Notes: a model not told the origin generated them from the sequence alone. Counted from the stretch's first letter, positions 1,841 through 31,377 are shown. The stretch is DNA of 32,000 nucleotides from Gelidibacter japonicus (GCF_010725055.1 NZ_BJKB01000002.1:463405-495404), one strand, 5' to 3'. Numbers and translations are program-made.

Positions 1841-1844
1841 AATA

Positions 1845-5117: not shown

Positions 5118-5275
5118 GATACATTTTACAATTGCTTTCCGAGGATAGAATAGCGTGTTGGTAAACTTAATTTCCATAAATTTGTGTTTTAGTTAGTTAA
5201 ATTTTTAATTAATTAAATACTCAAAAGGGATTAAGTTCATTACTGTGAGAGGTCGTGACTTGTCCCTTTATTTTT

Positions 5276-6433: not shown

Positions 6434-6583
6434 TGAAATAAAAATTAAAATCGATTGATTTATTATATGTACCGAAAAGAACACATTGGTACACGTCAGA
6501 TTTGAGATTTTTTTTATAAAAAGCATAAAACCAACCTCAAACACTTGACTACAAGAACCTTAAACCGAAATCAAAATTTAATT

Positions 6584-7162
6584 TTAGAAATGGTTCTCAA
6601 AGAATACTATGAAAAAGAAGAGTAGTTCTTCTCTGTGAAGATTCGCCCTAATCGTGATCAAGGCTTTGGAAATTTGATTTTTTACGGCCTGAATGGACAC
6701 ATTCAAGGTTTCAGCTATCTCCTTATTAGATTTGTGATCATACCGGCTTAATTCAAATATTTCCTTACAACGTGGCGGTAATTGATTGACAACATCTTGA
6801 ATGGTAGACTCTAATTCGTCATATTCCATTTTTTTTGCAGCATTCATGGAGACGTCAACAATATTCAGACGAGTTAAATCCTCATTTGAAAACTTATAAT
6901 CTCTGAAATAATTAAACACTTGAAATTTAACGGCCCGGAAGAGATAAGCCTCTACATTTTCAATAGAATTGGTCTTTCTTTTCGACCAGAAATCGATAAA
7001 AACATTCTGGACCAAGTCTTCACAAACATCTCTCTTTTTCAATATATTCAAGGCATACACAAGCATCTTGCCTGCGTATCTCTGATAAAGCTCTTCAAAA
7101 GCTTTTATATCATCAACAGCTATTCGTTTCAACAGCGCATGATTAGTATAGGACGTAAACAT
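6584..7162 (-). CDS. ECF-type RNA polymerase sigma-70 family factor
   Basis: 192 aa. Region-2-like segment (FEELYQRYAGKMLVYALNILKKRDVCEDLVQNVFIDFW) and region-4 HTH (KSNKEIAETLNVSIQAVKNQISKAL). Located upstream of the FecR-like gene. Confidence 0.9.
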   Translation of the reverse strand: MFTSYTNHALLKRIAVDDIKAFEELYQRYAGKMLVYALNILKKRDVCEDLVQNVFIDFWSKRKTNSIENVEAYLFRAVKFQVFNYFRDYKFSNEDLTRLNIVDVSMNAAKKMEYDELESTIQDVVNQLPPRCKEIFELSRYDHKSNKEIAETLNVSIQAVKNQISKALITIRANLHREELLFFFIVFFENHF

Positions 7163-7268: not shown

Positions 7269-8606
7269 CTAGTTCAAAGACAAACTACCCGCAAGTTGCT
7301 TCAAGGTGATTTCAGACAATTTAGCCTGGTAAATAGCGTTGCTTAAACGCAAGGAGGCTTGTATATAATTGAGTTGTGCTGTTCTGAATTCTATAGTTGG
7401 GATCGTTCCTATTTTATATTTCGCTAAAGTGATATCAAGATTTTCTTTCGCAATATTTTCATTCTTGGTCTCGAGTTCAATCAAGCTCAGATTGGTTTGA
7501 TAGGTTTGGAATGCGGTATGTAATTGTGATTTTATAGTCTGTGTCAGCTGGGCTATGGCAATTGTTGAATTTTCAATTTGAAGCTTAGCTATTTTTTCAT
7601 TTCTATTTTGATTGGAGCCGTTAAAAATATCTATACTGGCAGAAAATCCGTAATTCCATCCATGCGCATTATTTTTTGTAGTGAAACCCAAACTTGATTC
7701 TGAATCGCTGAAATTATAACCCGTATTGGCTGAAATTTTAGGGTAACGATTCCCCTTAACCTGCTTTAGTTCCAATTCAGAAATCCGTTTACTGATCAAT
7801 TGTGCCTGCAATTCCGGATTTTGAGTCGTTGCCAAATCCTCAAGTTCAGACAGCTGCAAATCACTCGCTATCAACACCTCATCCCTAACCTTAAATTTGG
7901 TTTCTGGGTCTCGACCCATAATTTCATTAAGTCTGATTTTTGTATTGGCATACACTTCAAGTTCTCTAATGTGAAGCGTCTTATCCGTATTGAGATCTAC
8001 TTGTGCATTCAGCACTTCCAACTTGGAAGCCTTGCCAATATTGAACCGGTTCTCAGCAAGTTCTACCCGTTGCTGGGAAATTACCAGAGTACTGTCTAAA
8101 GCGGTCAATTGCTGCTGGTGCTGGACCAAATCGTAATAAGTGATCATCACATCGCTCACCCGATTCAATAAGGCACTTTGCAACTCTGCTTTTCCCAATT
8201 TTTCAAGTTCTTTCAATCGGTCATAACGTGCGAACATGCCAAAACCATCAAAAATCGTCCAATCCAGTCCAACGCCATAATTGAGACTGTTGTTTTTTGC
8301 GTTATCCAATTCGATTATGTCACCGTTGGAACGGGTTTGCGATATATTTTGAGTGCTGTTATTGGTGTTGGCCTGGGCAAAAACCCGCGGGAGCATGCCA
8401 GCAAATCCAGGACTGACACCAAGAGAATCTGTTTTCAAATTGTTTCTTGCCAAACGAATATCGTAATTATTTTCCAAGGCAATTTCCACCGCTTTTTCAA
8501 GTGTCAATAGATCTTGCGAATGCGTATTCAATGAAAACAATCCCAAACACATACTCAGATATAGCGGCCAGAGCTTATACGGTTCCATAAGTATCAATTT
8601 TATCAA
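7269..8606 (-). CDS. TolC-family outer-membrane efflux channel
   Basis: 445-aa ORF; an alternative start at Met7 (8588) gives the signal peptide MEPYKLWPLYLSMCLGLFSLNTHSQ. The two-repeat coiled-coil/beta pattern is typical of the OEP family (LTLEKAVEIALENNYDIRLA...). It overlaps the 3' end of the RND pump gene by 14-32 nt, which implies co-translation. Confidence 0.85.
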   Translation of the reverse strand: MIKLILMEPYKLWPLYLSMCLGLFSLNTHSQDLLTLEKAVEIALENNYDIRLARNNLKTDSLGVSPGFAGMLPRVFAQANTNNSTQNISQTRSNGDIIELDNAKNNSLNYGVGLDWTIFDGFGMFARYDRLKELEKLGKAELQSALLNRVSDVMITYYDLVQHQQQLTALDSTLVISQQRVELAENRFNIGKASKLEVLNAQVDLNTDKTLHIRELEVYANTKIRLNEIMGRDPETKFKVRDEVLIASDLQLSELEDLATTQNPELQAQLISKRISELELKQVKGNRYPKISANTGYNFSDSESSLGFTTKNNAHGWNYGFSASIDIFNGSNQNRNEKIAKLQIENSTIAIAQLTQTIKSQLHTAFQTYQTNLSLIELETKNENIAKENLDITLAKYKIGTIPTIEFRTAQLNYIQASLRLSNAIYQAKLSEITLKQLAGSLSLN

Positions 8607-11600
8607 ATTCTGGATGATGTTTTCTTTTTCTTGACCACATCATATAAATAGACGGAATGACGAATAGGGTCAGAACAAGCGAAAACATGGTGCCGCCAAT
8701 AATGACCACCCCCATTCCGATACGACTTGTTGAAGCCGCTCCGATGGACAATGCAATTGGCAATGCTCCCAACGCTATAGTTAAACTCGTCATCAAAATT
8801 GGACGCAATCGGGAGACTGAAGCCTTTCGAATAGCTTCGTCCTTCGGGATGCCCTCTTCACGAAGTTGGTTGGCAAATTCTACTATCAAAATCCCGTTTT
8901 TCGTCACCAACCCAATTAACATGATGGTACCAATCTGGCTAAAAATATTCCAAGTCTGCCCAAATAACCACAATGAAAATAAAGCGCCCGCAACTGCCAT
9001 AGGCACGGTAAGGATAATAATAAATGGATCTATAAAACTTTCAAACTGAGCCGCCAAAATTAAAAATATGAGCAATAAAGCCAATCCAAACGCAAAAAGG
9101 GTATTGGAACTACTTTCCACAAAATCTCTCGACTCACCCCCCAAATCAGTGGTAAAAGTTTCGTCCAAAACCTTCGCCCGAATGCTCTCCATGGCATCAA
9201 TACCATCACTTATGCTCATCCCTGGTGCCAAACTTGCAGAAACCGTGGCCGACATATAACGGTTGTTGTGATATAGTTGTGGCGGACTACTATGTTCTTC
9301 AGTGGTCACTAAATTATCCATCTGTATCAATTCGCCCTTATCATTTTTGACGTACATTGACGTAAGATCCATCGGTTTACTACGATCTTTCTTATCAAAC
9401 TGTCCGATCACCTGATACTGCTTTCCATTCATCATAAAATAACCGAAACGCTGGCCACTTAACGATAATTGTAAGGTTTGTGCAACATCCAAAACCGAAA
9501 CGCCCAAGCTCTTTGCCTTTTCACGATCAATAGTGACATAGATTTCAGGTTTGTTGAATTTCAAATTCACATCCGTATTGGAAAAGACCGGATGATCCTC
9601 GGCTTCTTCCATAAACTCAGGAATTACTTCGCGTAACTTTTCAAAATTCTGAGCCTGAATTATATATTGAATTGGCATCCCTCCCCTTCTATTTACAGCG
9701 ATGGTTGGGGTTTCTGAGACACTCACACGGGCATTTTCATAATTTCTGGTCCATCGGGAAAGATCTTCGGCAATTTCTTTCTGAGAGCGATCGCGATCAC
9801 CTGGATCCACCAATGAAATGGTCGCACGACCGCTATTCACTGAAGACGATCCCCAGCCTGGAGAAGTGATAATTAAACTCACTTTTTTTTCTGGAATGGA
9901 ATCATTGATTAAATCGGTGATCTCGGTCATAAACCGATCCATATACTCATATGAAGCACCTTCTGGAGCCGTTACGTTAAGTCCGATATAACTTCTATCA
10001 TCGTAAGGTGCTGTTTCTTTTTGAAGCAAACTATAGAACACCCCAATCATCACAATACAGATGGCCAATACAGGGAAGCTCCACCATTTATTCTTCAGGA
10101 ACTTGCCTAATGAACTGGCATAGGCATTATTCATCTTCACGAAAAAAGGTTCTGTATAAAGATAAAACCGTGTTTGGTTCTGCTTTCCAGGTTTCATCAA
10201 ATAGGCATTCAGCATAGGCGTCAATGACAAAGAGACGAAGGCCGAAATCAAAACGGCCGCACCAATAACCACACCAAATTCTCGAAACAATCGGCCAACA
10301 AAGCCCTCCAAGAAAATTACAGGAAGAAAAACTGCTGCCAGCGTCACCGAGATGGAAATCACCGCAAAGAAAATCTCATTGGAACCCTTGATTGCAGCCT
10401 CAATGGGCGACATGCCTTCTTCTACTTTTTTATAGATATTTTCAGTGACCACAATCCCGTCATCTACCACCAATCCCGTGGCGAGGACAATAGCAAGCAG
10501 GGTCAATACATTGATAGAAAACCCAAACATCCACATTATAAAGAAGGTCGCAATCAAGGATACAGGAATATCGATTAGTGGTCGCATGGCAATGGACCAG
10601 TTTCTAAAGAAGAAAAAGATGACCAAGATGACTAAAACAATGGAAATCCCCAAGGTTTCCACAACCTCGGTAATGGCGCGTTTGACGAATAAGGTATCAT
10701 CAATCACGACGTTCAATTTGAAATCGGCAGGCAAATCTTTTTTAAGCTTGTCAAATTCCTCATAGAACGCGTCGGCGATAGCTACATAGTTGGTTCCCGG
10801 TTGTGGTACAATTGCCAAAGCCACCATAGGTTGCCCAGAGTCGCTCAGCTTGGTTTCCATGTTTTCAGCTTCTAGGGTAGCCTTTCCAATATCACTAAAA
10901 CGTACTACTTTCCCATTTTCAGCGGAAATGATGATATCATTAAATTCTTCTTCGGTAGAGAGATTACCAATAGTTTTTATGGTCAATTCGGTATTGGCGC
11001 CCGTTAATTTACCAGAAGGCAACTCGACGTTTTGCGACAACAATGCGCTTCTCACTTCTGCAACGGTTACACCGTACGACGCCAATTTTAATGGATCAAT
11101 CCATAAACGCATGGCATATTTTCGCTGTCCCCAAATTTGAACACTACTTACTCCCGGAATGGTTTGCAAACGCTGAGCTAAAACATTATCCGCATAGTCT
11201 GTAAGTTCCAGAATGTTCCTGTTATCGCTCTGAACCGTCATGGAAATAATGGCACGCGAATCGGCGTCAGCCTTTGACACTACCGGTGCAGCATCAATAT
11301 CCTGAGGCAAGCTCCGAATGGCTTGTGACACTTTATCACGCACGTCATTGGCGGCTTCTTCAAGATCTTTATCAAGGTTGAATTCAATACTGATTCGACT
11401 GGAGCCCTGGTTGCTTGAGGACGTTATATTCCTGATTCCATCAATACCATTGATCGCTTTTTCAAGTGGTTCCGTGATTTGGGATTCAATAATATCGGCA
11501 TTCGCACCTGAATAACTAGTCCTCACAGATATTTGTGCCGGATCAATAGAAGGAAACTCCCGTACCCCAAGATAGGTAAAACCAATAATCCCGAACAACA

Positions 11601-11664
11601 TAATGGTCAAGTTCATGACAATGGCCAGTACGGGACGTTTAATGCTTAAAGTAGATAAACTCAT
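8575..11664 (-). CDS. RND efflux transporter permease subunit (AcrB/HAE1-like)
   Basis: 1029 aa with the 12-TM plus two large periplasmic loop architecture. The N-terminus MSLSTLSIKRPVLAIVMNLTIMLFGIIGF...GVREFPSIDP and conserved TM4-region motifs (GLVVDDGIVVTENI) are typical of AcrB-family pumps. Confidence 0.92.
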   Translation of the reverse strand: MSLSTLSIKRPVLAIVMNLTIMLFGIIGFTYLGVREFPSIDPAQISVRTSYSGANADIIESQITEPLEKAINGIDGIRNITSSSNQGSSRISIEFNLDKDLEEAANDVRDKVSQAIRSLPQDIDAAPVVSKADADSRAIISMTVQSDNRNILELTDYADNVLAQRLQTIPGVSSVQIWGQRKYAMRLWIDPLKLASYGVTVAEVRSALLSQNVELPSGKLTGANTELTIKTIGNLSTEEEFNDIIISAENGKVVRFSDIGKATLEAENMETKLSDSGQPMVALAIVPQPGTNYVAIADAFYEEFDKLKKDLPADFKLNVVIDDTLFVKRAITEVVETLGISIVLVILVIFFFFRNWSIAMRPLIDIPVSLIATFFIMWMFGFSINVLTLLAIVLATGLVVDDGIVVTENIYKKVEEGMSPIEAAIKGSNEIFFAVISISVTLAAVFLPVIFLEGFVGRLFREFGVVIGAAVLISAFVSLSLTPMLNAYLMKPGKQNQTRFYLYTEPFFVKMNNAYASSLGKFLKNKWWSFPVLAICIVMIGVFYSLLQKETAPYDDRSYIGLNVTAPEGASYEYMDRFMTEITDLINDSIPEKKVSLIITSPGWGSSSVNSGRATISLVDPGDRDRSQKEIAEDLSRWTRNYENARVSVSETPTIAVNRRGGMPIQYIIQAQNFEKLREVIPEFMEEAEDHPVFSNTDVNLKFNKPEIYVTIDREKAKSLGVSVLDVAQTLQLSLSGQRFGYFMMNGKQYQVIGQFDKKDRSKPMDLTSMYVKNDKGELIQMDNLVTTEEHSSPPQLYHNNRYMSATVSASLAPGMSISDGIDAMESIRAKVLDETFTTDLGGESRDFVESSSNTLFAFGLALLLIFLILAAQFESFIDPFIIILTVPMAVAGALFSLWLFGQTWNIFSQIGTIMLIGLVTKNGILIVEFANQLREEGIPKDEAIRKASVSRLRPILMTSLTIALGALPIALSIGAASTSRIGMGVVIIGGTMFSLVLTLFVIPSIYMMWSRKRKHHPEFDKIDTYGTV

Positions 11665-11667
11665 CAG

Positions 11668-12732
11668 TTAGGATTGATTCTTTAAATTCACTTTTACCGG
11701 GGTACCATTTCTGAGTGACATGACTCCAGATGTTAATATGGTATCACCTACTTTAATTCCAGACAGCACACGTACTTCACTGTCCGTTCTGGCTCCAGTT
11801 TCAACTTCCACCTCTTTGGCTTTTCCATTTTCCATGACGAATATTTTCTTGCCGTTTTGGATAGGGATCAAGGCTTCTGTTGGTACCAATAATGCGTTAT
11901 TGACAGTTTCAAGTGGTAAGGTCACATAGGCAAAAGTGCCTGGGTACAATTTATCTTCCTTGTTTTCGGCAATAGCTCTCATTCTCAAAGTTCTTGTGGC
12001 AATATCCACCTGTGGCTCTATCGCATAGATTTTCGCCGTGTGTTCTTCTTTGGAATTGGAGGTTGTAAATGTCAATATCGTGCCCACTTTCATACGGGAA
12101 ACATATTTTTCCGGAACGGCAAATGTTAATTTTAGCTGACTTGTATTGACCAGTTTGGCAATTGGTGTTGACGGCGTAACATAAGTACCTTTAGAAATAG
12201 CGCGCAAACCGATGGTTCCCGAAAAAGGAGCACGAACGGTTGTTTTTGATAATTGGGCCGCAATCAGATCGGCTTGGGCCCGTGCAGATTCAAAATCGGC
12301 GTTGGACACATCAAATTCCTCCTGACTTATCGCCTGTTTATCCAATAACAGCTTAGCTCTTCTCTGATTTTCAGAAGCCAACTGTTGCGCCGTTTTTACT
12401 TGCGACAGTTGGGCGCGAAGTTCAATGTCATTGACTTTAAACAGAACTTGTCCTTTTGAAACCTTTTTACCTTCTTCAAAATTGATACTTTCTACAATTC
12501 CGGAGATTTCACTTCGTATCTCAATTTCCTCATTGGCCTCCAAGGTGCCGGAAAGGGTAAGGTTTTCTGCAAATTTCTCGGCTTGGAGGACTTTCCCTTC
12601 AACACTCATCACAGTGGCTGTTCGTTGAGCACCTTTCGGACTGCTGGCTTTGGAATTCACACTAATTCTATTAGCGATGAGCGCAATTATTCCGCAGATA
12701 ATAATGGCGATAATAATGTATCTTTTTTTCAT
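11668..12732 (-). CDS. RND efflux periplasmic adaptor (membrane fusion protein, HlyD/AcrA family)
   Basis: 354 aa with an N-terminal membrane anchor, lipoyl/barrel-sandwich segments (EIRSEISGIVESINFEEGKKVSKGQVLFKV), a coiled-coil hairpin and beta-barrel segments (VRAPFSGTIG). It ends 3 nt upstream of the RND pump start. Confidence 0.9.
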   Translation of the reverse strand: MKKRYIIIAIIICGIIALIANRISVNSKASSPKGAQRTATVMSVEGKVLQAEKFAENLTLSGTLEANEEIEIRSEISGIVESINFEEGKKVSKGQVLFKVNDIELRAQLSQVKTAQQLASENQRRAKLLLDKQAISQEEFDVSNADFESARAQADLIAAQLSKTTVRAPFSGTIGLRAISKGTYVTPSTPIAKLVNTSQLKLTFAVPEKYVSRMKVGTILTFTTSNSKEEHTAKIYAIEPQVDIATRTLRMRAIAENKEDKLYPGTFAYVTLPLETVNNALLVPTEALIPIQNGKKIFVMENGKAKEVEVETGARTDSEVRVLSGIKVGDTILTSGVMSLRNGTPVKVNLKNQS

Positions 12733-14929: not shown

Positions 14930-15649
14930 TTAAAATATCATAATCGCTCCCGAAACACACAAGAGCAGCATCAATGATCTTTTAAATAATTTTTCATCAA
15001 TCTTCGAAAACGTCCGTTTCCCTAAAAACTGAGCAAGTAGAAATATGGGAAAGACAAATAATGCCATTTTTAAGTGATTGACATTTAATATCCTACTTAC
15101 TGCTAAAGCTGGGACACGAGTGATGGTAACCAGTCCTAAAACTCCTATCATTGTGGCTCGAAACACTTTTATACTATGAGCGGTGTTTTCAACGCAAATC
15201 ACATACAAAGGTCCACCAGTTGAGAATACACCTGAAAAAAAACCACCCATAACTCCAAATCCAATAACTCCATTCTTATTAAGTTTTATTTTCGTTTTTC
15301 CAAAAGAGACATAGGCTACATACAGTAAGATAAAGACTCCCAACCCTCTTTTTAAAATGATGGGTTTTGCATAGCTAAGCACTACAATCCCTAAAATGAC
15401 GCCTATCACCGAGGTCAATGCCAACTGGAGAATGATTTTCCTATCAATATTCCGCCATTCCTTCATGATTAGAAAAACACTCGAAAACAGATAAAAAATG
15501 GAAATAAAAGCGATTGCATCAGGGAGTTGCATTTTAAAAAGCAAAATAGGAAGCGCCATCAAAGACCCAGCAAACCCGACAACAGTCTGCACATAAAAAC
15601 CCACGAATATTCCAATTGCGAGAATAAAAAAAACTTCTAAGGACATCAT
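14930..15649 (-). CDS. TauE/SafE-family (DUF81) anion-export-type membrane permease
   Basis: 239 aa, polytopic (about 7-8 TM), with glycine-rich repeat segments (VGFAGSLMALPIL; GGFFSGVFSTGGPL) characteristic of TauE/SafE. Confidence 0.75.
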   Translation of the reverse strand: MMSLEVFFILAIGIFVGFYVQTVVGFAGSLMALPILLFKMQLPDAIAFISIFYLFSSVFLIMKEWRNIDRKIILQLALTSVIGVILGIVVLSYAKPIILKRGLGVFILLYVAYVSFGKTKIKLNKNGVIGFGVMGGFFSGVFSTGGPLYVICVENTAHSIKVFRATMIGVLGLVTITRVPALAVSRILNVNHLKMALFVFPIFLLAQFLGKRTFSKIDEKLFKRSLMLLLCVSGAIMIF

Positions 15650-15772
15650 AAAATCATCTTATTAAACAGTATAAAATTACGAGATACGCAATCAATATGT
15701 AAATAGATTAAGTGGCAATCTCCACATAATTCCAAATAAAACGTGTATTTTTATCTTAAAACAATCGAATCG

Positions 15773-16201
15773 ATGGTCAGTGATATAGATAGAGAAATAA
15801 TCGGTTTATTAAAAATAAATGCTCGAGCCTCTTTTGCAGAAATAGGAAGAAAAATAGCGCTTTCTCCCTCCGCGGTTCGAGAACGCGTTCAGAAATTAGA
15901 AGATCTGGGAGTTATAAAATCTTATGGTGTTAAATTAAATCAAGCTCTTTTAGGAAATGGGCTGGAAGTATTTATTCTACTGAAAATCTTTGACGGAAAG
16001 TTGAAATATATTTTATCGGAAATCAATACCTTCCCCGAAGTCCAGGAAGTATACAGAATAACTGGGCCTTATAATATCCACGTTCGGGTTGTGCTCCGCG
16101 ATCAACTACACCTACAACAATTTATAGATAAACTCATTCAATATGGCAGCCCCACTACTCTTCTCATTCTATCAGAAATTGAAAATAGAAAGGGTAGCTG
16201 A
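15773..16201 (+). CDS. Lrp/AsnC-family transcriptional regulator
   Basis: The ORF track starts at an upstream GTG (15743); the likely start is ATG 15773 (MVSDIDREIIGLLKINARASFAEIGRKIALSPSAVRERVQKLEDLGVIKSY). It has an N-terminal HTH_AsnC-type domain and a C-terminal RAM/AsnC_trans_reg ligand domain (EVYRITGPYNIHVRV). Divergent from the TauE-like gene. Confidence 0.9.
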   Translation: MVSDIDREIIGLLKINARASFAEIGRKIALSPSAVRERVQKLEDLGVIKSYGVKLNQALLGNGLEVFILLKIFDGKLKYILSEINTFPEVQEVYRITGPYNIHVRVVLRDQLHLQQFIDKLIQYGSPTTLLILSEIENRKGS

Positions 16202-16242: not shown

Positions 16243-19452
<3,210 letters not shown>

Positions 19453-19505: not shown

Positions 19506-22500
19506 CTAAAATTGCATGATATCTTCCGCTAATATTTTTCTCAAATAAAAGAGCAATTCTTCGGCGTTATCTTTAGTAAAAATAATTGGGGGTTTAATCT
19601 TCAATACGTTATGATCTGGACCATCAGTACTCATTAAAATACCGTGATCTTTCATTCTATCTGCTAAATAATCGGTTTGGGCTGCCAATGGATTCATATC
19701 CGCATCCACCAATTCAATTCCAAGAAATAAACCTTGTCCACGCACATCACCAATAATTGGAAACTCGTGAGCCAATTTACGGAGTTCATCTTTTAAAAAT
19801 GTTCCGACTTTTAAGGCGTTTTCCTGTAATTTCTCCCGCTTTACAGTGCGTATCACCTCAGCACCAATAGCACAGGACACTGGATTCCCACCAAAAGTAT
19901 TGAAGTATTCCATGCCATTCGCAAACTTATCTGCAACCTCACGTGTACAAGCCACTGCAGCAAGGGGATGTCCATTACCTAAAGGCTTGCCAATAGTGAC
20001 AATATCTGGAACCACATCATGTAATTGAAAGCCCCAAAATGTTTTCCCCGTCCTGCCGCAACCCGTTTGGACTTCGTCAGAAATACAAAGGCCGCCAGCT
20101 GCTCTCACTTTTTCATAGGCTTTGGCTAAAAACCCTTCTGGCAACTCAACTTGTCCGCCGCAGCTGATAATAGGTTCTATAATGAATGCACCTACGCCAC
20201 GGCTTTTTTTATGGACAACATCGATTTGTTTTTGGACTTCTTCTGCATATTTCTCTGCGCTGTCCTCGCCTCTATATTTTCCTCTAAACGCATCTGGCAA
20301 AGGGAAAATATGGGTATGTTCTGGAGCACCACTTCCTCCTTTTCCATCAAATTTATAAGAACTAATGTCGATGCACATATTACTATTGCCATGATAGCCC
20401 ACTTCACTGGCTATTATATCCCGTTCGCCAGTGGCCGCTTTGACCATTCTAATGGCCAGTTCATTGGCTTCACTGCCCGAATTGACAAAATGTAAAACAC
20501 TTAATTCTGGTGGCAAGGTTTCAATAAGTTCTTCGGCCAGGGCATTGATATTGTCGTGCAAATAGCGCGAATTGGTATTGATCAGAGCCATTTGTTCTTG
20601 ACCTGCCTTTACCACGTCATAATTTTCATGACCAACATGCGCCACGTTATTGACGGTGTCCAAATATTTACGTCCGTACTGGTCCATTAAATATTGACCC
20701 GCACCGCGAACCATTTTGATGGGCTCTTTATATTGAAGACTTAAGCTTTTGCCTAAATGTTGCTTTCTATAGTTGATTAATTCGGCATTGGAAGTGCCAT
20801 CAATTTTTTGAAGCGCTTCGGTTTTAAATAACACATTCGGATTTGGACAGATATTCTTCCACACGTTTATTTGATTATAATACGCAACGCCGGGGAAATC
20901 ATTCTTATAATCTAAAAGTGACAACATGAGCTGAAAATGAAGATGAGGCACCCAATTGCCGTTTTCTTGTGAAGCTCCTAATGCTCCGATTTTTTCATCT
21001 TTCTTTATAGTGTCCCCAACTTTATTTTTAGTAGCGCTTTCAACCGATAAATGCCCATATAGGGTGTAGAATTCAAAGTCGTCGGCTTGGTGTTTTAGAA
21101 TAACCAATCCACCATATTCCTTATCACCAGCGTCATTGACAGCAATAACCACTTCGCCATCAAATAGCGCATGAACTGGAGTGCCGCTTGGCAACCAAAA
21201 ATCAACCCCTAAGTGGATGGTTCTACTTTCCTTTCCGGAATTTCCTATTTTATCATAAGCATCCGACGTATATAAAGCACGAGGTTCTAAATAGCCACCG
21301 GCGATAATTTTGTTAGAATTTTTCTTTTGAAGCCGGTCAATTTTAAACTGAAAGAGGTCCAGATCGTTAAATTCCTCTTGGTGACCGATCCATTTGCTCG
21401 ACACACTCAAATCGACGTGATGTACGTCGTTCTTGTCAATGGTTGGAAACAGGTGGTTTAGTTCAAAACTTTGTTTTTCAGCCCAATCCTTAAACGCCTT
21501 TGTCTTAGGATGTGCTTCGTAACCACAGGTATTTCTAAAACTGAAATGCGCAAAATCCGGACTTATATTGCGCCATTTCTCAAGCACTTTCCAAGCTGGT
21601 TTTTCACTGATCAACAAGTAGGTGTTATCAGGTTCTGCAATTTTATTGATGGCCGATTTAGTCACTGAAATCACCAATCGCATGGCAATAGCATTGTATA
21701 AATGCGCTAATTCGTCCTCTTGCAATTCAAACGTCGAATGATAGCCTTGAACAATCGGCAAAGCCGCTTCCAACGGGTCGTTATGATCCATTATAGCATA
21801 CGCGCAAGCAACGGCAACATCATTTATAATCTGGGTATGAACAGCGTCGCCATAATCTATGACCGCTTCAACTTTAGGTTCAAGTAAATCGGAGGAGACA
21901 ATGATATTATTATCGTTGGCATCATTGTGAACGACTGCTTTTCTTAATTTCGAATAGGTATCTTGAGAGACTTCAAACAGATTTTGAAAATATTCAACGA
22001 TGGCTTTTTCTTCATCTCTAAACAGGTCAACATGGTCTTTTGTCCAAAGCGATTGTGCCACATCCCAATCAAATCCGCGATGTGCTTCTGCATGGTCAAA
22101 CCCTTGCAGCGATAGGGTCAACAATCCGCATTGTTTACCTAAACTAAAGCGCAAATCATCCAATTGCGGATTGATGCCACTCCAAACGCGGCCAGAAACC
22201 CAACTTAATAACCGCACATGGCGTTCCTTTCCAAAATCATCGGTGATTTTAGAAATAGCATTTCCATTCGTATCACTTATAACTTTGGGCGCCATTAGAT
22301 TTCGCCCATGATCTGCAACAAACTGCAATAGTTGTTGTTGAAAATCAAGATAGTTCTCATTTTCGTTCGGCCGGGATATTTTTAGAATGTAACCAGGCCC
22401 ATTATCAACCTTAATTCTAAAGTTAAAATCCAATTCGCCAGGAAGTGCTGTTGCCTTTCCTTTAATCTGGAATAGCTTGAAGAGAATGTCTTCAGCCTGC

Positions 22501-22532
22501 TGATTTGATATTTTTAAGTTGTCGTAGTTCAT
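19506..22532 (-). CDS. Three-domain fusion: APH-fold hydroxylysine-kinase-like domain, M23 metallopeptidase domain, and class-III aminotransferase-fold AGXT2L-type phospho-lyase-like domain
   Basis: 1008 aa, no signal peptide. Residues 1-330 carry the kinase motifs YILKISR, VVHNDANDNN (catalytic loop, nt 21906-21929) and VIDYGDA. Residues about 410-540 carry the M23 motifs HLGVD (H440/D444, nt 21201-21215), LYGHL and HLH (H530/H532, nt 20937-20945). Residues about 585-1008 carry NNVAHVGH, NTNSRYLHDN, NSGSEAN, CGGQ, DEVQTGCGRTGKTFWGFQ, VPDIVTIGKPLGNGHP (PLP lysine K849, nt 19986-19988), MEYFNTFGGNPVSCA and NVLKIKPP. As I recall them, these closely track the human AGXT2L1/AGXT2L2 phospho-lyases. 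Confidence 0.85.
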   Translation of the reverse strand: MNYDNLKISNQQAEDILFKLFQIKGKATALPGELDFNFRIKVDNGPGYILKISRPNENENYLDFQQQLLQFVADHGRNLMAPKVISDTNGNAISKITDDFGKERHVRLLSWVSGRVWSGINPQLDDLRFSLGKQCGLLTLSLQGFDHAEAHRGFDWDVAQSLWTKDHVDLFRDEEKAIVEYFQNLFEVSQDTYSKLRKAVVHNDANDNNIIVSSDLLEPKVEAVIDYGDAVHTQIINDVAVACAYAIMDHNDPLEAALPIVQGYHSTFELQEDELAHLYNAIAMRLVISVTKSAINKIAEPDNTYLLISEKPAWKVLEKWRNISPDFAHFSFRNTCGYEAHPKTKAFKDWAEKQSFELNHLFPTIDKNDVHHVDLSVSSKWIGHQEEFNDLDLFQFKIDRLQKKNSNKIIAGGYLEPRALYTSDAYDKIGNSGKESRTIHLGVDFWLPSGTPVHALFDGEVVIAVNDAGDKEYGGLVILKHQADDFEFYTLYGHLSVESATKNKVGDTIKKDEKIGALGASQENGNWVPHLHFQLMLSLLDYKNDFPGVAYYNQINVWKNICPNPNVLFKTEALQKIDGTSNAELINYRKQHLGKSLSLQYKEPIKMVRGAGQYLMDQYGRKYLDTVNNVAHVGHENYDVVKAGQEQMALINTNSRYLHDNINALAEELIETLPPELSVLHFVNSGSEANELAIRMVKAATGERDIIASEVGYHGNSNMCIDISSYKFDGKGGSGAPEHTHIFPLPDAFRGKYRGEDSAEKYAEEVQKQIDVVHKKSRGVGAFIIEPIISCGGQVELPEGFLAKAYEKVRAAGGLCISDEVQTGCGRTGKTFWGFQLHDVVPDIVTIGKPLGNGHPLAAVACTREVADKFANGMEYFNTFGGNPVSCAIGAEVIRTVKREKLQENALKVGTFLKDELRKLAHEFPIIGDVRGQGLFLGIELVDADMNPLAAQTDYLADRMKDHGILMSTDGPDHNVLKIKPPIIFTKDNAEELLFYLRKILAEDIMQF

Positions 22533-24761: not shown

Positions 24762-26456
24762 ATGAAAAAGTTGACGCATTTTATTCTTTTCACCTTTATA
24801 TGCATTTGTTTTACAACACAGGCACAAACGAATATATGGGATGAAAACCCAGCTGATTCGCAAGTTGAATTGGACAGTTTGTTGACCATTTTACCTACAG
24901 TGAATCGGGTAAAAAAAACACCCTTGTTAAATAGGATTGCAGAGATCTATTGGTCAATCAACCCTGACAAAACCATAGAATATGCTTCAGAAGCCTTACA
25001 ACTATCAAAGGAATTCAATCAAAAAGAGCAAGAAGGCTTGGCCCTTATCAATCTTTGCCAAGGCTATTTATTTAATGATATTTATGATAAGGCCTTACAA
25101 TATGGTTTACAATCTCTAGAAATCCGGAAAGAGATTGGAAATGACTACGATTTGGCTTTTACCTTACGCACGCTTGGATGGCTCTATTATGACATTGGAT
25201 ATTTTGACAAAGCCTTGGAATATCATACGGAAGTACTCAAAATACACGAAAAAATAGGTTCAAAACAACGGATTGCCTACAGTTACAATAGTATAGGACT
25301 GATTTATGAGGGGAAAGGCGATTGCAATTTAGCATTATCCTTTTTTAAGCGATCCTTAAAACTCATCGAAGAGCTTGACAATAAGGACAGAATTGCCGAA
25401 GCCATGACCAATATGGGCATCTGTTATCGTAAAATCGATGACCTTGGTTTAGCCATAAGATACTTAGAATCGGCGCTGGAGATTACCAATGAAATCAAAT
25501 TCGATCACAAAAAAGTCTATATCCTGCATGAGCTGTCCATTGTCTATTTGAAACAGGAGGATTTTAAAAAAGCCCACGCTTTATTGGAAGAATCGAGAAT
25601 GATTATTCAAACGATCAAGAATAACAAAGAATTAATTTTAGAGAATAATAAAATCACCTCCGATTATTATGTCGCAACAAATAATTATAAGGAGGCCTAC
25701 AGTTACTACAAGAAATACATAGAAGAATCCTCTGAAATATTCTCAAGCACTGAAAGTGAAAGACTCGCCGAAATGAGAGTTTTGTACGAGGCCGAACGAC
25801 GTGAAAACGAAATTAAACTCTTAGAACAAGAACGACACTTAGAAGCACAAAAAAGAAATTTTCTACTCATTGGTGCGCTATTATTGGTCATTATTGCAGT
25901 CCTGATTATTGGAAGCCTCTGGAATAATATAAAAAAGAAGAAGGCCATCTACTTGCAGAGCCACAAACTCTCAAAAGAGAAGTTAAAAACACAATCTTTA
26001 GAACGCGAGAATCTTGAACACAAGTTAGAGTTTCGCCAAAAAGAACTCACAAACCTAGCCTTGTTTATCTCGCAACGTACTTCCATATATAAGGACTTCA
26101 CCAAGTCTTTAAAAGATTTAAAATTCACCGATTTAAAAGAGCTCAAAAAAAACATTGATAATCTTATAAAAGAATATACGTTTAAGTTTGATTTTAATGA
26201 AGACATTCAACGCTTCCATGCCAATATAGAAAATCTGCAAAGCGACTTTCTATTTAAAATCAAAGAAGAATTCCCGCATTTAACGGATAAAGATGTTCAG
26301 CTTGCTGTTCAGGTCAAACTCAAACTTAGCTCCAAGGAAATTGCCAATATAAATAATATCTCTTTAAATTCGGTGGAAATTGGCAGGCATCGATTAAGAA
26401 AAAAGCTCGGCTTGGAGTCAAAAGACAATCTTGTAACTTTTTTAGAAAACATTTAA
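24762..26456 (+). CDS. One-component transmembrane regulator: periplasmic TPR sensor, single TM helix, cytoplasmic coiled coil, LuxR/GerE-type HTH
   Basis: 564 aa. It has a signal peptide (MKKLTHFILFTFICICFTTQAQ), multiple TPR-like repeats (residues about 60-330, e.g. YDKALQYGLQSLEI, FDKALEYHTEVLKI, NLALSFFKRSLKL), a TM helix FLLIGALLLVIIAVLIIGSLW (nt 25860-25922) and a C-terminal HTH LTDKDVQLAVQVKLKLSSKEIANINNISLNSVEIGRHRLRKKLGL (nt about 26280-26417). Confidence 0.8.
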   Translation: MKKLTHFILFTFICICFTTQAQTNIWDENPADSQVELDSLLTILPTVNRVKKTPLLNRIAEIYWSINPDKTIEYASEALQLSKEFNQKEQEGLALINLCQGYLFNDIYDKALQYGLQSLEIRKEIGNDYDLAFTLRTLGWLYYDIGYFDKALEYHTEVLKIHEKIGSKQRIAYSYNSIGLIYEGKGDCNLALSFFKRSLKLIEELDNKDRIAEAMTNMGICYRKIDDLGLAIRYLESALEITNEIKFDHKKVYILHELSIVYLKQEDFKKAHALLEESRMIIQTIKNNKELILENNKITSDYYVATNNYKEAYSYYKKYIEESSEIFSSTESERLAEMRVLYEAERRENEIKLLEQERHLEAQKRNFLLIGALLLVIIAVLIIGSLWNNIKKKKAIYLQSHKLSKEKLKTQSLERENLEHKLEFRQKELTNLALFISQRTSIYKDFTKSLKDLKFTDLKELKKNIDNLIKEYTFKFDFNEDIQRFHANIENLQSDFLFKIKEEFPHLTDKDVQLAVQVKLKLSSKEIANINNISLNSVEIGRHRLRKKLGLESKDNLVTFLENI

Positions 26457-26716: not shown

Positions 26717-29700
26717 ATGAAAAAAAAACAATCAAAAAATCAAATTCACTCTTATAAAAGTCTGTTTTTATTACTTTTTGTATTTGTGTCTTTTGGATTT
26801 ATGACCAACACGCATGCTCAAGGCATCTTGGTGAAAGGAACAATTACAGATAATTCTGGAATACCCGTTCCAGGAGCAACGGTTATGGTAAAAAGCGATC
26901 CATCTGTTGGGACACAGTCTGACTTTGACGGAAATTATTCTCTTGAAGTACCAAACAACCAAACCATATTGGTTTTTAGTTACTTGGGTTTTGCAACTAA
27001 AGAAATTATGGTAGGCTCCCAAACAACCATTAACGTGTCATTACAAGAAAGTGCTGAAGATTTGGATGAAATCGTTATTGTTGGATATGGTACCCAAAAG
27101 AAAAGTGATGTCACTGGAGCCATAAGCTCTGTCAAAAGTGAAGACCTCACAAAAGTGGTGACCACAAATCCTGTAGACGCACTCCAAGGTAGGGTTTCTG
27201 GTGTTACGGTAACCTCTTCTTCTGGAAGTCCTGGTTCTACATCAGATATCACCATTAGAGGCATTGGAAGTTTTGGGAACAATCAACCGCTTTATATTGT
27301 TGACGGTGTACAAGCTGACCCGTATTTTTTAAATGCCAATGATATTGAGTCCATTGAAGTTTTAAAAGACGCGGCTTCTGGTGCTATTTACGGAACACGA
27401 GCAGCTAATGGCGTCATTATCATTACCACAAAAAAGGGTAAAGCTGGCAAAACAAAGATCGAGATAGAAAGTTCTTTAAGCTCCAATACAGCTAGAGAGG
27501 CCATGAAGTTACTTGATGCCGATGGATACGTTTCCGTACATAGACAAATGTATGAGAATGCAGGTGCTAGTCTACCGCAATATGTTCAAAACCCACCCAA
27601 TGTGAATACCAATTGGATTGATGAAACCCACAGAACCGGTCAATTAAACCTATTGAATGTTCGCGTAAGTGGTGCCTCTGACAATATCAATTATAGCGTA
27701 GCTGGAAGTTACGCTGATGAAAAGGGGATTTTAATCGGTTCTGGATTTACCAAAAAAGGCATCAATGCCAACCTTTCATCCACGAAAGGGAAATTAAAAA
27801 TTAACACGAGTTTAAATTACAGTGAAACAAATCAAGAGGATTATAAATTCTCACTTAGGGAAACCTATTTCATATCACCCTTGATTCCTGTTTTAGATCC
27901 GTCTAAACCATCAGGTTATGGCTATAGAAGTGGCGATCTACCTGACCATCGAAATCCAGTTGGTGAAGCTGCTATTATTGATGGCTACACCAAGATGAAG
28001 TATTTCTTAGGAAATGTAGGTTTTACATATGAAATTATTGAAGGGCTTAATGCCAACGCAAACTTTTCCTTAGCCAACAGAGATAATTACACTTATGCTT
28101 TCCATCCGCCATTTCAGGTAAGGGATATTGATGACAATCCACAGAATGAATACGCCTTTGTTTCTGAGTACAACAGTGAATTCAGAAGGTTAAATCAAGA
28201 GTACACGCTCAATTACCAGTTTGATCTAGGTAAGCACTCGGTTAATTTATTGGCGGGATATCAACGAATCTCTGAACCATTTAAGGAAACCTACGTCCAA
28301 GCCGAAGGTTATAAGTTTGATGAGAATGGCGATAAAATCCCAGCTACAATATTAGATCCAAGTTTCAACACTATGAATGCCTTTGGCGACGGCACTTATT
28401 CGGCCGAAGGAACAAACGCAGAATATGCATTGGTATCTCAATTTGGAAGGGTTAATTACGCCTACAATGATCGCTACTTATTTCAAGCGAGTGTCCGAAG
28501 GGATGGTAGCTCAAAATTTGGGAAGAACAATCAATATGGTGTTTTCCCTTCTGTGGCCGCCGGGTGGAAGATAACAGATGAAGATTTTATGAAGAATCAA
28601 AATATCTTCAACTTCCTAAAATTACGCTTCAGCTGGGGGCAAGCAGGTAATGATAGTGCTTTGGGATATTACGATTATATCGCCCTTATCTCTCAAGGAA
28701 AAGACCGAAGTAATGGAGGTTATGTATTTGGAAATCCACAAACCTCATATTTAGGAAGTATCGCGCGCGATTTGCAGAATGATGACCTACAATGGGAAAC
28801 CAACACCTCATCAAACTTCGGAATCGACTTTGCCTCCTTGGGCAATAAGTTAAAAGGGGCCATCAACTATTATAGCACAACTACTCAAGATTTACTCATT
28901 ACAAAAGAGGTTTCCCCATCAAGCGGGGTCAACAATCCGATTGTAAACGTTGGAGAATTTGAAAATAAAGGATTGGAATTAGAGCTGGGCTATGTCAATA
29001 AAGATGGTGAATTTGGTTACTCAGCTTTTGGAACCTTTACCACCATTAACAGCGAAGTAACAAAACTCAGTAACGCCAATCAAAAATTATATGGGATTGG
29101 TTTATTGTTTGGATCGGATCATTTTGTGAACCAAACCCAAGTAGGTTATGAGCCTGGAGCCTATTTTTTACCTGTAGCCGATGGGATCTTCCAATCACAG
29201 GCCGAAATTGATGCTCACGGTGCGCAACCAAATGCCTCTCCTGGAGACATCAGGTTTGTAGATCAAAATGGTGATGGTGTAATAGATTCAAAAGACGAAA
29301 CCTATCAAGGCACGGCAATTCCTAAATACGAATACAGTTTGAGTCTTTCAGCCGATTACAAAAAATTTGACTTCAATATATTCTTCCAAGGTGTTGGAGG
29401 CAACAAAATATACAATGGCAACGATTTTAGATTGTTAAGCTTGGATACGGGAAGGAATTTTAGAGCTGAAGCGGAGAATGCATGGACGCCTTCCAACACC
29501 AACACCAACATTCCAAGAGCGGTATTGGGCGACCCTAACAGAAACAGTAGGGCCTCAACGAGATTTTTAGAAAAAGGCGATTATTTAAGAATCAAGACCA
29601 TTCAGATTGGGTATTCATTACCGACCAATATTCTGGAAACTTTAGAGTTGGATAAATTGAGAGTTTACCTTACCGGACAGGACTTATTTACATTCACCAA

Positions 29701-29812
29701 ATATAGTGGCCTAGACCCTGAAGTTGGAGGAAGCGTATTGTCAAGAGGTATTGATATTAATTTATATCCGAAATATAAATCGATAATTTTTGGAGTACAA
29801 TTAGCATTTTAA
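26717..29812 (+). CDS. SusC-type TonB-dependent receptor (no STN domain)
   Basis: 1031 aa with a signal peptide, CarboxypepD_reg-like domain (VKGTITDNSGIPVPGATVMVKS), TonB box and plug (DEIVIVGYGTQKKSDVTGAISSV; IESIEVLKDAASGAIYGTRAANGVIIITTKKG) and a C-terminal barrel ending FGVQLAF. Confidence 0.93.
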   Translation: MKKKQSKNQIHSYKSLFLLLFVFVSFGFMTNTHAQGILVKGTITDNSGIPVPGATVMVKSDPSVGTQSDFDGNYSLEVPNNQTILVFSYLGFATKEIMVGSQTTINVSLQESAEDLDEIVIVGYGTQKKSDVTGAISSVKSEDLTKVVTTNPVDALQGRVSGVTVTSSSGSPGSTSDITIRGIGSFGNNQPLYIVDGVQADPYFLNANDIESIEVLKDAASGAIYGTRAANGVIIITTKKGKAGKTKIEIESSLSSNTAREAMKLLDADGYVSVHRQMYENAGASLPQYVQNPPNVNTNWIDETHRTGQLNLLNVRVSGASDNINYSVAGSYADEKGILIGSGFTKKGINANLSSTKGKLKINTSLNYSETNQEDYKFSLRETYFISPLIPVLDPSKPSGYGYRSGDLPDHRNPVGEAAIIDGYTKMKYFLGNVGFTYEIIEGLNANANFSLANRDNYTYAFHPPFQVRDIDDNPQNEYAFVSEYNSEFRRLNQEYTLNYQFDLGKHSVNLLAGYQRISEPFKETYVQAEGYKFDENGDKIPATILDPSFNTMNAFGDGTYSAEGTNAEYALVSQFGRVNYAYNDRYLFQASVRRDGSSKFGKNNQYGVFPSVAAGWKITDEDFMKNQNIFNFLKLRFSWGQAGNDSALGYYDYIALISQGKDRSNGGYVFGNPQTSYLGSIARDLQNDDLQWETNTSSNFGIDFASLGNKLKGAINYYSTTTQDLLITKEVSPSSGVNNPIVNVGEFENKGLELELGYVNKDGEFGYSAFGTFTTINSEVTKLSNANQKLYGIGLLFGSDHFVNQTQVGYEPGAYFLPVADGIFQSQAEIDAHGAQPNASPGDIRFVDQNGDGVIDSKDETYQGTAIPKYEYSLSLSADYKKFDFNIFFQGVGGNKIYNGNDFRLLSLDTGRNFRAEAENAWTPSNTNTNIPRAVLGDPNRNSRASTRFLEKGDYLRIKTIQIGYSLPTNILETLELDKLRVYLTGQDLFTFTKYSGLDPEVGGSVLSRGIDINLYPKYKSIIFGVQLAF

Positions 29813-29832: not shown

Positions 29833-31377
29833 ATGAAAAACGTATATAAAATAGTTCTAGTTGCTTTAATAATAACAACTACAACATCATGTAATGACGA
29901 TGATTTCTTAGAACAAACATCCGTAGACCAATTAACCTCTGCCAGTTTTTGGAGAAATGCCGAAGATGCGCAGTCCGGTTTAGTAGCGGCCTATTCAGAA
30001 TTGGAATCGAGAAGCAATTTCTGGGATGGATGGCAGGAAGGACGTCCAGTGGTTGAATATTTCAGATCTGATTATGCCCTACCTGGACCGGATGCAAGCA
30101 ACTACGCACATTGGATGTCCATTTATAATTTCACTTACACCAATGGCCATACTTTTATAGATGTGATATGGACCACAAACTATAAAGGATTAAATTTTGC
30201 CAATCAAGTGATTACCAAAGTTGGAGAAATGACCTCTGACAAGATATCGGAGGCGGAGAAAAAGCAAATAATTGGAGAAGCTACTTTTTTAAGAGGCTAT
30301 TACCACTTTAAATTATTGACGCTTTATGAGCAAATTATCTTAAGGACTGAGTTAATCTCCAACGAAACCTTAGACAAGCCGCTATCCACTCGTCCAGAGG
30401 CATGGGAAGTGATTATCAACGACTTCAAACAAGCTGCTGAGATGTTACAAACAGTGGACAATACCGAGCCTGGAAGAGCCACAAAAGGAGCCGCCTTAGC
30501 CTATTTGGGTAAAGCCTATATGTATAAAGCTGGTGATCCTTCTTCATCTGAAGCCTCCGACTTTGAAAATGCAGCACTGGCGTTTAAGCCAATTGTTGAA
30601 GGCGCAGCAGGTTCCTATGCCTTAGAGTCCGATTTTTCAAGCTTGTTTAATGGCGAAAATGAAAATAATAAAGAATCCATCTTTGAACTGCAGTTTAAAA
30701 CCGCAGATGCCACGTCGAATAACTCAACAAGACTACATGCTTTTGTAGGCGATTGGTCGATAGGTGGCTGGGGTGGTATTGCTGCCACCATGGACATTGT
30801 TAACGAAATGAAAAGTGAAGGCATGATTGCCAGCAACGGCCTGTATGACAATAGACTTTACGGTTCGCTCTATTTTAGAGATCCGTTCTATAATGACCCT
30901 AACACCAACCAAATGCAGGGAAGTACATGGGACGAGCTAATGATGGAAACTTATGAAAACACAAATGATAATGCCGTTTATTTTAGAAAATGGTTACCTA
31001 ATTATGTTTGGAACAATAGCTATGTTGGTGTTAATGTGGTATTGATGCGATATGCTGATGTGTTACTGATGTATGCTGAGGCGTTGAACGAAACCGGTGC
31101 TACACCTCAGGCCATTGATTTTATAAATAACGTAAGGGCAGTACATGGCCATATGCCTCCAATAACAGTAACTTCTCAGGCTGATGTCAAAAAACAAATT
31201 ATCCATGAACGAACCATGGAATTGACCTTAGAATCTGTACGGTTTTTTGATTTACGACGATGGAATATGTTAGACCAAGCCATGCAGGCAGCCGGTAGAA
31301 GTAATTTTAGTGCGGCATCTCACGCTTATTTGCCAATACCATTATCAGAGATTAACTCCAACTCTGCCATTAATTAA
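29833..31377 (+). CDS. RagB/SusD-family nutrient-binding lipoprotein
   Basis: 514 aa. The lipobox is followed by an acidic stretch (TTTSCNDDDFLEQ) resembling the Bacteroidota surface-lipoprotein export signal. SusD-like helical core (VLLMYAEALNETG, RFFDLRRW). It starts 20 nt downstream of SusC. Confidence 0.92.
   Translation: MKNVYKIVLVALIITTTTSCNDDDFLEQTSVDQLTSASFWRNAEDAQSGLVAAYSELESRSNFWDGWQEGRPVVEYFRSDYALPGPDASNYAHWMSIYNFTYTNGHTFIDVIWTTNYKGLNFANQVITKVGEMTSDKISEAEKKQIIGEATFLRGYYHFKLLTLYEQIILRTELISNETLDKPLSTRPEAWEVIINDFKQAAEMLQTVDNTEPGRATKGAALAYLGKAYMYKAGDPSSSEASDFENAALAFKPIVEGAAGSYALESDFSSLFNGENENNKESIFELQFKTADATSNNSTRLHAFVGDWSIGGWGGIAATMDIVNEMKSEGMIASNGLYDNRLYGSLYFRDPFYNDPNTNQMQGSTWDELMMETYENTNDNAVYFRKWLPNYVWNNSYVGVNVVLMRYADVLLMYAEALNETGATPQAIDFINNVRAVHGHMPPITVTSQADVKKQIIHERTMELTLESVRFFDLRRWNMLDQAMQAAGRSNFSAASHAYLPIPLSEINSNSAIN

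Follow-up and report, generated by a model that had tools for sequence, protein, structure and literature searches.

We analyzed a window of 32,000 nucleotides (nt) from Gelidibacter japonicus (GCF_010725055.1, NZ_BJKB01000002.1:463405-495404). It contains a gene whose product fuses a predicted APH-type kinase, an M23 peptidase domain and a class-III pyridoxal phosphate (PLP)-dependent domain of the phospho-lyase type (Table 1). The open reading frame (ORF) proposed in the initial annotation of this DNA was recovered unchanged, and all the motifs quoted there were found where it had placed them, explicitly or by implication. The protein is 100% identical to a RefSeq entry of the same species named "aminotransferase class III-fold PLP-dependent enzyme", and no signal peptide was predicted for it. 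The Pfam search suggested in the initial annotation returned its three domains, APH (residues 27-265), Peptidase_M23 (439-536) and Aminotran_3 (604-1001), all far above their cutoffs. The description as a two-step fusion holds for the kinase and lyase ends; the two-domain layout, which accounted for about 330 + 420 residues, does not, since a module of about 200 residues, the M23 domain, lies in between and had been overlooked, M23 being named there solely in the suggested profile search. Nor can the fusion be regarded as a new observation, because the curated NCBIfam family NF004799 (PRK06148, "hypothetical protein") already covers such an architecture. It matches the protein over its full length with 1158.1 bits for a cutoff of 1128, residues 7-1003 being aligned with positions 10-1010 of the 1015 of the profile.

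Table 1. Features of the analyzed window, numbered from its first nucleotide (aa, residues of the encoded protein).
Feature	Position	Strand	Basis or remark
Tri-domain fusion gene	19506..22532	-	ATG-to-stop ORF, 1008 aa; APH-type kinase + M23 + phospho-lyase-type class-III PLP
Kinase domain, about aa 1-365	21438..22532	-	Pfam APH, E 1.6e-21
Catalytic loop HNDANDNN, aa 202-209 (H202-N-D204-x4-N209)	21906..21929	-	motif located in the translation
Linker motif and M23 domain (Pfam 439-536)	20853..21320	-	Pfam, E 1.8e-18
Conserved motif G412-x-Y414-x-E416-x-R418-x-x-Y421, aa 412-421, just N-terminal of the M23 core	21270-21299	-	at least 90% conserved in homologues of 34-62% identity; family-specific
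Phospho-lyase-type class-III PLP domain, aa 575-1008	19506..20810	-	phmmer, Foldseek, Aminotran_3 E 6e-80
PLP lysine K849	19986-19988	-	Schiff-base lysine, invariant
YgjK-like GH63 (clan GH-G) alpha-glucosidase (predicted), lipoprotein, 676 aa	22533..24563	-	Pfam MGH1-like_GH, YgjK_N, GH63; PDB YgjK 3e-73
LacZ-type GH2 beta-galactosidase (predicted), lipoprotein	16243..19452	-	Pfam GH2 domains; NCBIfam beta_gal_Bga2A, 1006 bits for a cutoff of 999
Terminator-like hairpin past the GH2 stop codon	16191..16214	-	9-bp stem, 5 GC pairs, T-rich tail
Divergent TPR + LuxR/GerE-type regulator	24762..26456	+	Pfam
SusC-like TonB-dependent transporter	26717-29812	+	Pfam
SusD-like protein	29833-31377	+	Pfam
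Divergent TauE/SafE-family exporter and AsnC/Lrp regulator	14930-16201		adjoins the operon terminator
Resistance-nodulation-division (RND) efflux trio: outer-membrane factor, AcrB-type pump (E 1e-290), HlyD-type membrane-fusion protein	7269-12732	-	about 30 nt shared by the first two ORFs
Second SusD/SusC pair, accompanied by a separate FecR-type anti-sigma factor and extracytoplasmic function (ECF) sigma factor	464-7162	-	separate unit resembling a polysaccharide utilization locus, none of its genes in the window being a glycosidase gene

The AlphaFold2 model of the whole protein has a mean predicted local distance difference test score (pLDDT) of 91.7 and a predicted TM-score (pTM) of 0.89. 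In view of this high pTM, the three domains are predicted to form one compact body, which presumably works as a dimer. The channeling of a phosphorylated intermediate, which the initial annotation took to follow from the fusion, is here regarded as conjectural. Two plus-strand ORFs lying inside the gene (20151-20495 and 22000-22311) were set aside as by-products of the long minus-strand frame.

The N-terminal domain displays all the hallmarks of the APH fold, namely the HxDxxxxN catalytic loop, the metal-binding DxG and the beta3 lysine. The last of these is K51, in the segment YILKIS (residues 48-53), and the metal-binding site is IDYGD (I-D226-Y-G-D229, residues 225-229). Among 69-85 homologues sharing 34-92% identity, D204, N209, D226, G228 and D229 are invariant, and K51 and H202 almost so. 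A phmmer search of the PDB sequences with this domain gave nothing at E <= 0.01. We thus turn to the fold: a separate AlphaFold2 model of residues 1-380 (pLDDT 88) has as its closest solved neighbors in Foldseek the Agrobacterium homoserine kinase 2PPQ, amicoumacin kinase and the aminopropanol kinase 6EF6, followed by antibiotic-type APH enzymes. The best NCBIfam model for the kinase part, outside its own family, is likewise that of a homoserine kinase, thrB_alt. No chain of the hydroxylysine kinase HYKK occurs among the PDB sequence and fold matches of the domain, and the parallel with motifs of the human enzyme drawn in the initial annotation is tentative. Judging from its sequence and model, the N-terminal domain is therefore an APH-fold kinase whose closest solved relatives phosphorylate the hydroxyl groups of small amino compounds such as homoserine and aminopropanol.

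The C-terminal domain contains the motifs NNVAHVGH (residues 628-635), NTNSRYLHDN (652-661), DEVQTGCGRTGKTFWGFQ (819-836, with D819 and Q822 in DEVQ), VPDIVTIGKPLGNGHP (841-856), MEYFNTFGGNPVSCA (874-888) and NVLKIKPP (975-982). K849, D819 and Q822 do not vary in homologues with identities as low as 34%. When the PDB sequences were searched, the two characterized phospho-lyases ranked on top, human ETNPPL (6TOR, 440 bits, E 2e-130) and A1RDF1 from Arthrobacter (5G4I, 315 bits, E 2e-92), whereas every other solved class-III enzyme, including dialkylglycine decarboxylase, racemases and the GABA, ornithine and putrescine transaminases, scored at most 179 bits. In the phmmer search from which the residue-level alignments were taken, the values were 442 bits (2e-131) for 6TOR and 317 bits (3e-93) for 5G4I. 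Foldseek with the AlphaFold2 model gave the same order: 6TOR (E 1e-43, 49% identity, root-mean-square deviation (rmsd) of 1.3 A) and 5G4I (1e-41) came before racemases and transaminases at about 1e-33. RefSeq and JGI label it as a class-III aminotransferase or as 4-aminobutyrate aminotransferase-like, and the Pfam fold is Aminotran_3, so that a genuine aminotransferase has to be considered. In view of the gap in scores, of the specific transaminase models of NCBIfam, all of which fall far under their cutoffs, and of the obligate fusion to a kinase, which suits a phosphorylated substrate, we regard this as highly improbable. Sequence and model comparisons thus place the domain with the phospho-lyases of the ETNPPL/A1RDF1 type and not with the transaminases. 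Both enzymatic assignments of the initial annotation, an APH-fold kinase with an intact catalytic loop and a phospho-lyase rather than a transaminase, are upheld by these data, the former by Pfam, residue conservation and fold neighbors, the latter by homology.

Between these two domains, the M23 signature is complete: H440xxxD444, H494 (in YGHLS) and H530-L-H532 provide the zinc ligands (HxxxD and the second histidine of HxH) and two catalytic histidines, and the HxxxD, catalytic histidine and HxH motifs align in register with those of zoocin A, LytM and lysostaphin. The five catalytic residues are invariant in an alignment of 85 sequences (41-92% identity) and are retained in 83-93% of 124 representatives of tri-domain clusters (35-62% identity). 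Just ahead of the core, the conserved G-x-Y-x-E-x-R-x-x-Y motif may belong to the substrate site of this domain. Zoocin A, LytM and lysostaphin hydrolyze peptidoglycan as secreted or periplasmic enzymes, whereas the M23 domain of the fusion is located inside a cytoplasmic metabolic enzyme and bears this conserved N-terminal extension. The extracytoplasmic location typical of cell-wall M23 enzymes was found neither by signal peptide prediction nor from the position of the domain, internal to a cytoplasmic enzyme. Since the fusion has no signal peptide, its M23 domain is predicted to be cytoplasmic, with an active site that, from the alignments, is under purifying selection, and in this it is atypical of family M23. 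It looks, and may work, like an M23 hydrolase, though not like the usual cell-wall enzymes that act on the peptidoglycan cross-bridge.

The fusion gene is flanked by two glycosidase genes in the same orientation. The stop codon of the upstream GH63-like gene directly abuts the ATG of the fusion, with a gap of 0 nt. Its product has the lipobox LFNLSC, and the catalytic residues (D336, WESGMD454N and E647) are the same in all 46 orthologues aligned. The downstream GH2 protein also has a lipoprotein signal, with VLGC; its translation probably begins at the ATG near 19374, the listed GTG start lying 26 codons further upstream. The hairpin past the GH2 gene is the probable end of a three-gene operon made of the GH63-like gene, the fusion and the GH2 gene, and the terminator scan gave no comparable hairpin between the three genes. 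A scan for sigma-70 promoters returned 37 sites, no excess over the 32.5 +/- 6.7 of shuffled sequence, with a model that does not represent the promoters of Bacteroidota. Together with the adjacent SusC and SusD genes and the dedicated regulator, the two lipoprotein glycosidases make up what defines a polysaccharide utilization locus (PUL) in Bacteroidota.

Gene order was then counted in 80 related loci from many genera, dereplicated to one genome per species. The GH63-like gene lies directly upstream on the same strand in 38 of the 71 assessable loci, with a median gap of 0 nt, and the GH2 gene directly downstream in 40 of 67; both flank the fusion in 30 of 63 loci, and this order recurs over many genera of Flavobacteriaceae. 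SusC/SusD genes stand beside the operon in 29-30 of the 80 loci. The TPR-LuxR regulator occupies the same position in 13 related loci, others having an ECF sigma/FecR pair or a GntR regulator; the type of regulator commonly varies among PULs.

In some other genera, the operon sits in a wider island, which typically reads OCD, ProRac, GH63-like, fusion, GH2, SSF symporter, GalK, GalT and GNAT. The opposite strand carries two M24 peptidases, a DAO-type dehydrogenase, a dipeptidyl peptidase IV (DPP-IV), a second ProRac protein, a DUF885 protein, an aldehyde dehydrogenase and a DHDPS-family gene; in islands of sister genera, S37 peptidases and a mutarotase are also present. The OCD protein exceeds the NCBIfam cutoff for Delta1-pyrroline-2-carboxylate/piperideine-2-carboxylate reductase, and the ProRac protein next to it has trans-3-hydroxy-L-proline dehydratase as its best match, under cutoff. 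This pair corresponds to the known trans-3-hydroxyproline route, and the 4-hydroxyproline epimerase set is found on the other side, where the second ProRac protein exceeds the cutoff for 4-hydroxyproline epimerase. The M24 proteins best match Xaa-Pro dipeptidase and Xaa-Pro aminopeptidase, under cutoff. At least one neighbor of the collagen or galactose type (hydroxyproline genes, Xaa-Pro or other peptidases, Leloir or symporter genes) is present in 49 of the 59 loci whose flanks extend over the full 10 kb. The modified residues that characterize collagen are 3-hydroxyproline, 4-hydroxyproline and 5-hydroxylysine in glycosylated form. We also observed that the OCD and ProRac pair sits directly upstream of the GH63-like gene in eight loci. 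Small GNAT acetyltransferase genes recur as well, between the GH63-like gene and the fusion in four loci and downstream in several others, with no obvious role in the pathway considered below.

On this basis, we propose that the fusion is a cytoplasmic hydroxylysine kinase and phosphohydroxylysine phospho-lyase that acts after removal of the glucosyl-galactosyl (Glc-Gal) disaccharide of collagen, a reading to which we give a probability of about 60%. The chemistry is inferred from characterized relatives of the fusion and the substrate from conserved gene order, every substrate assignment combining homology with neighborhood. The collagen glycan is Glc-alpha1,2-Gal-beta-O-hydroxylysine (Glc-Gal-Hyl). 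Glycopeptides would enter through SusC/SusD, after which the GH63-like lipoprotein would take off the glucose as an alpha-glucosidase and the GH2 lipoprotein the galactose as a beta-galactosidase. Once the aglycone is imported to the cytoplasm, the kinase domain would phosphorylate the hydroxyl of the amino alcohol, turning 5-hydroxy-L-lysine into 5-phosphohydroxylysine, and the PLP domain would carry out the 1,2-elimination of phosphate to give 2-aminoadipate semialdehyde, ammonia and inorganic phosphate. Hydroxylysine appears to be the likeliest substrate in this lineage because a putative alpha-1,2-glucosidase, a beta-galactosidase and a kinase/phospho-lyase with homology to the hydroxylysine pathway of vertebrates share one operon, as the stepwise degradation of Glc-Gal-Hyl would require. 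In many genera, the next genes downstream encode GalK, GalT, a mutarotase and a sugar symporter, which fits with a release of galactose.

As for the glucosidase, Miyazaki et al. are said to have proposed, in 2013, sugars containing Glc-alpha1,2-Gal as substrates of YgjK. This GH63 enzyme from Escherichia coli, the best match to the upstream gene product, binds Glc-alpha1,2-Gal: a YgjK mutant has been crystallized with this disaccharide, the one found in collagen (PDB 3W7W), and nigerose is not considered to be the natural substrate of YgjK. The only known enzyme for the step in question, PGGHG (EC 3.2.1.107), removes glucose from Glc-alpha1,2-Gal-Hyl but belongs to GH65, whereas the upstream gene is GH63-like; among known alpha-1,2-glucosidases there is no GH63 enzyme acting on collagen glycans. 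The proposed chemistry is that of the vertebrate pair HYKK/AGPHD1 and PHYKPL/AGXT2L2, in which an APH-family kinase is also paired with a class-III PLP lyase of the AGXT2L type. The Gelidibacter system differs from this pair in being bacterial, in joining both activities and an M23 domain in one polypeptide, and in being encoded inside a glycosidase operon and PUL.

A further possibility concerns the M23 domain. In the Gly-X-Y repeats of collagen, hydroxylysine always precedes glycine, and many M23 enzymes cut at glycine. One could speculate that the M23 domain hydrolyzes a peptide bond still present next to hydroxylysine, either X-Hyl or Hyl-Gly, which would make the fusion trifunctional. Extended in this way, the operon and the PUL would form an undescribed bacterial pathway for the full use of Glc-Gal-Hyl, with a GH63 alpha-1,2-glucosidase active on Glc-Gal-Hyl, a GH2 enzyme cleaving Gal-beta-O-Hyl and a trifunctional cytoplasmic fusion in which the M23 domain releases hydroxylysine from a short peptide of collagen, ahead of the kinase and lyase reactions. 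This larger scheme is put forward tentatively, and we consider it more doubtful than not.

Several observations weigh against the hydroxylysine assignment or parts of it. The GH63-like protein reaches 354 bits for a YgjK cutoff of 625 in NCBIfam, and the natural substrate of YgjK is itself presumed. Neither an inner-membrane transporter for hydroxylysine nor a 2-aminoadipate-semialdehyde dehydrogenase was identified in the operon, and the hydroxyproline genes of the related islands are absent from the window. The closest solved relative of the lyase domain handles phosphoethanolamine, and the sequences compared here do not separate ethanolamine from hydroxylysine specificity. In Acidobacteriota, Chloroflexota, Cyclobacteriaceae and Saprospiraceae the tri-domain gene stands alone, so that the link with collagen may be lineage-specific and the family taken together may act on different or more varied substrates. 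Finally, the M23 domain is dispensable for the coupling of kinase and lyase, since bi-domain forms without it exist.

One may wonder whether the fusion could act on ethanolamine, the kinase making phosphoethanolamine and the lyase converting it to acetaldehyde, ammonia and inorganic phosphate, with the neighboring glycosidases only loosely related to it. Activity on ethanolamine phosphate has reportedly been found for A1RDF1 of Arthrobacter. Human ETNPPL (AGXT2L1) is the top solved homologue, and the lyase motifs of the fusion match it identically or within wildcard positions, save for a Y/F change in NTNSRYLHDN. However, ETNPPL takes this rank by default, the PDB holding no PHYKPL structure, and it is a stand-alone enzyme supplied with phosphoethanolamine by an unrelated enzyme of the choline/ethanolamine-kinase type. 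The kinase domain of the fusion matches Pfam APH and homoserine and aminopropanol kinases, not choline/ethanolamine kinase. A1RDF1 (5G4I/5G4J, from Arthrobacter aurescens), a bacterial enzyme that belongs to this lyase clade, has 38% identity. It consists of one domain only, is less closely related than human ETNPPL and differs in several motifs (for instance NNVPHVGH and NVLKMRPP). No eut-type gene or acetaldehyde dehydrogenase was found in the conserved neighborhood, and an ethanolamine route would leave the conserved two-glycosidase operon and the collagen-type islands unexplained. Gene context thus favors phosphohydroxylysine over phosphoethanolamine, and we hold the ethanolamine route to be quite unlikely. 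Only slightly less unlikely in our opinion is another hydroxylated amine unrelated to collagen and processed by the same chemistry, be it aminopropanol, a hydroxy-amino acid besides 5-hydroxylysine or the aglycone of some other marine Glc-Gal glycoside. The family indeed occurs widely among soil and marine phyla, where no collagen context is seen, and the aminopropanol kinase 6EF6, a top structural neighbor of the kinase domain in spite of only 17% identity, is paired with a class-III PLP enzyme in the RMM (aminoacetone-utilization) microcompartment loci of Mycobacterium. The RMM system differs from the fusion, being encoded by separate genes, encapsulated in a microcompartment and devoted to another substrate, and no microcompartment shell genes are present here. 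Besides, we know of no other natural Glc-alpha1,2-Gal-beta-O-amino-alcohol, and the recurrent 3-hydroxyproline, 4-hydroxyproline and prolidase genes indicate collagen specifically.

On the other hand, the M23 domain could be a zinc-binding structural or oligomerization module, with no third catalyst and a fusion that functions in two steps. The bi-domain homologues devoid of M23 in Planctomycetota, SAR324 and other groups speak for such a role, as do the approximately 7-17% of representatives substituted at one or more of the M23 catalytic positions and the pTM of 0.89, which implies that the domain is rigidly packed between the other two. Moreover, some degenerate M23 domains are known to have an activating role without being catalytic, and the weaker matches include NlpD and ActS. 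The conservation of the five catalytic residues nevertheless exceeds the needs of a pure scaffold, and we see a purely structural role as a serious possibility that falls short of even odds.

The distribution of the family bears on these questions. A HMMER scan of 1.84 billion cluster representatives returned hundreds of full-length relatives, and the family spans hundreds of clusters at 50% identity in Bacteroidota, Acidobacteriota, Chloroflexota and Planctomycetota. By profile search, tri-domain members were found in Saprospiraceae, Cyclobacteriaceae, Bacteroidales, Acidobacteriota and Chloroflexota, and bi-domain kinase-lyase homologues of about 785 residues in Planctomycetota, SAR324, Chloroflexota (Ardenticatenaceae) and Ignavibacteriaceae. 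Six tri-domain loci outside Flavobacteriaceae had no conserved or informative neighbors, and in three bi-domain loci we found neither an adjoining stand-alone M23 gene nor conserved partners. In two contigs from Planctomycetota, the bi-domain gene is preceded by genes for a glycosyltransferase of family GT4 and a large beta-helix protein.

The fusion architecture is already known and catalogued, and was used in 2012. Bacterial bi- and tri-functional fusions of AGXT2L with an APH-type kinase were reportedly the starting clue from which Veiga-da-Cunha et al. deduced in that year that AGPHD1 is the hydroxylysine kinase and that AGXT2L1 and AGXT2L2 are ammonio-phospho-lyases. Two later reviews cite this work (Veiga-da-Cunha et al. 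2012) as an example of function deduced through gene fusion or comparative genomics. The initial annotation had held that the substrate of the bacterial fusions is not established experimentally, and this agrees with our search, which found no experiment on a bacterial fusion, a weak negative given its thin coverage of subscription journals. Nor did we find, in literature where these journals are sparsely covered, any paper in which hydroxylysine is tied to the PRK06148/NF004799 family, to its M23 domain or to a GH63/GH2 PUL. The conserved collagen-type context yields a specific substrate hypothesis, which we did not find in the literature searched.

Collagen is the most abundant protein of animals and has hydroxylysine and its Glc-Gal glycoside as hallmarks; the literature searched gave no account of how bacteria dispose of either compound. 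If our proposal is correct, an operon joining deglycosylation to a kinase and a phospho-lyase would represent a route for the marine recycling of collagen carbon and nitrogen. It would also provide a function for a very large family whose members are now labeled "hypothetical protein" or "aminotransferase", and would explain the retention of a cell-wall-type M23 domain within a cytoplasmic metabolic enzyme. Should the context hypothesis hold, a GH63 glucosidase acting on Glc-Gal-Hyl and a beta-galactosidase acting on Gal-Hyl would both be enzymes of undescribed kinds. Even if the hydroxylysine reading is wrong, the fusion would still be a good candidate for a direct test, in bacteria, of the fusion-based inference made in 2012.

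Apart from the operon and its PUL, the window contains the efflux genes and the second SusD/SusC unit listed in Table 1. A TauE gene, such as the one adjoining the operon terminator, also immediately precedes the tri-domain gene in a contig from Caldilineaceae, which is possibly a coincidence.

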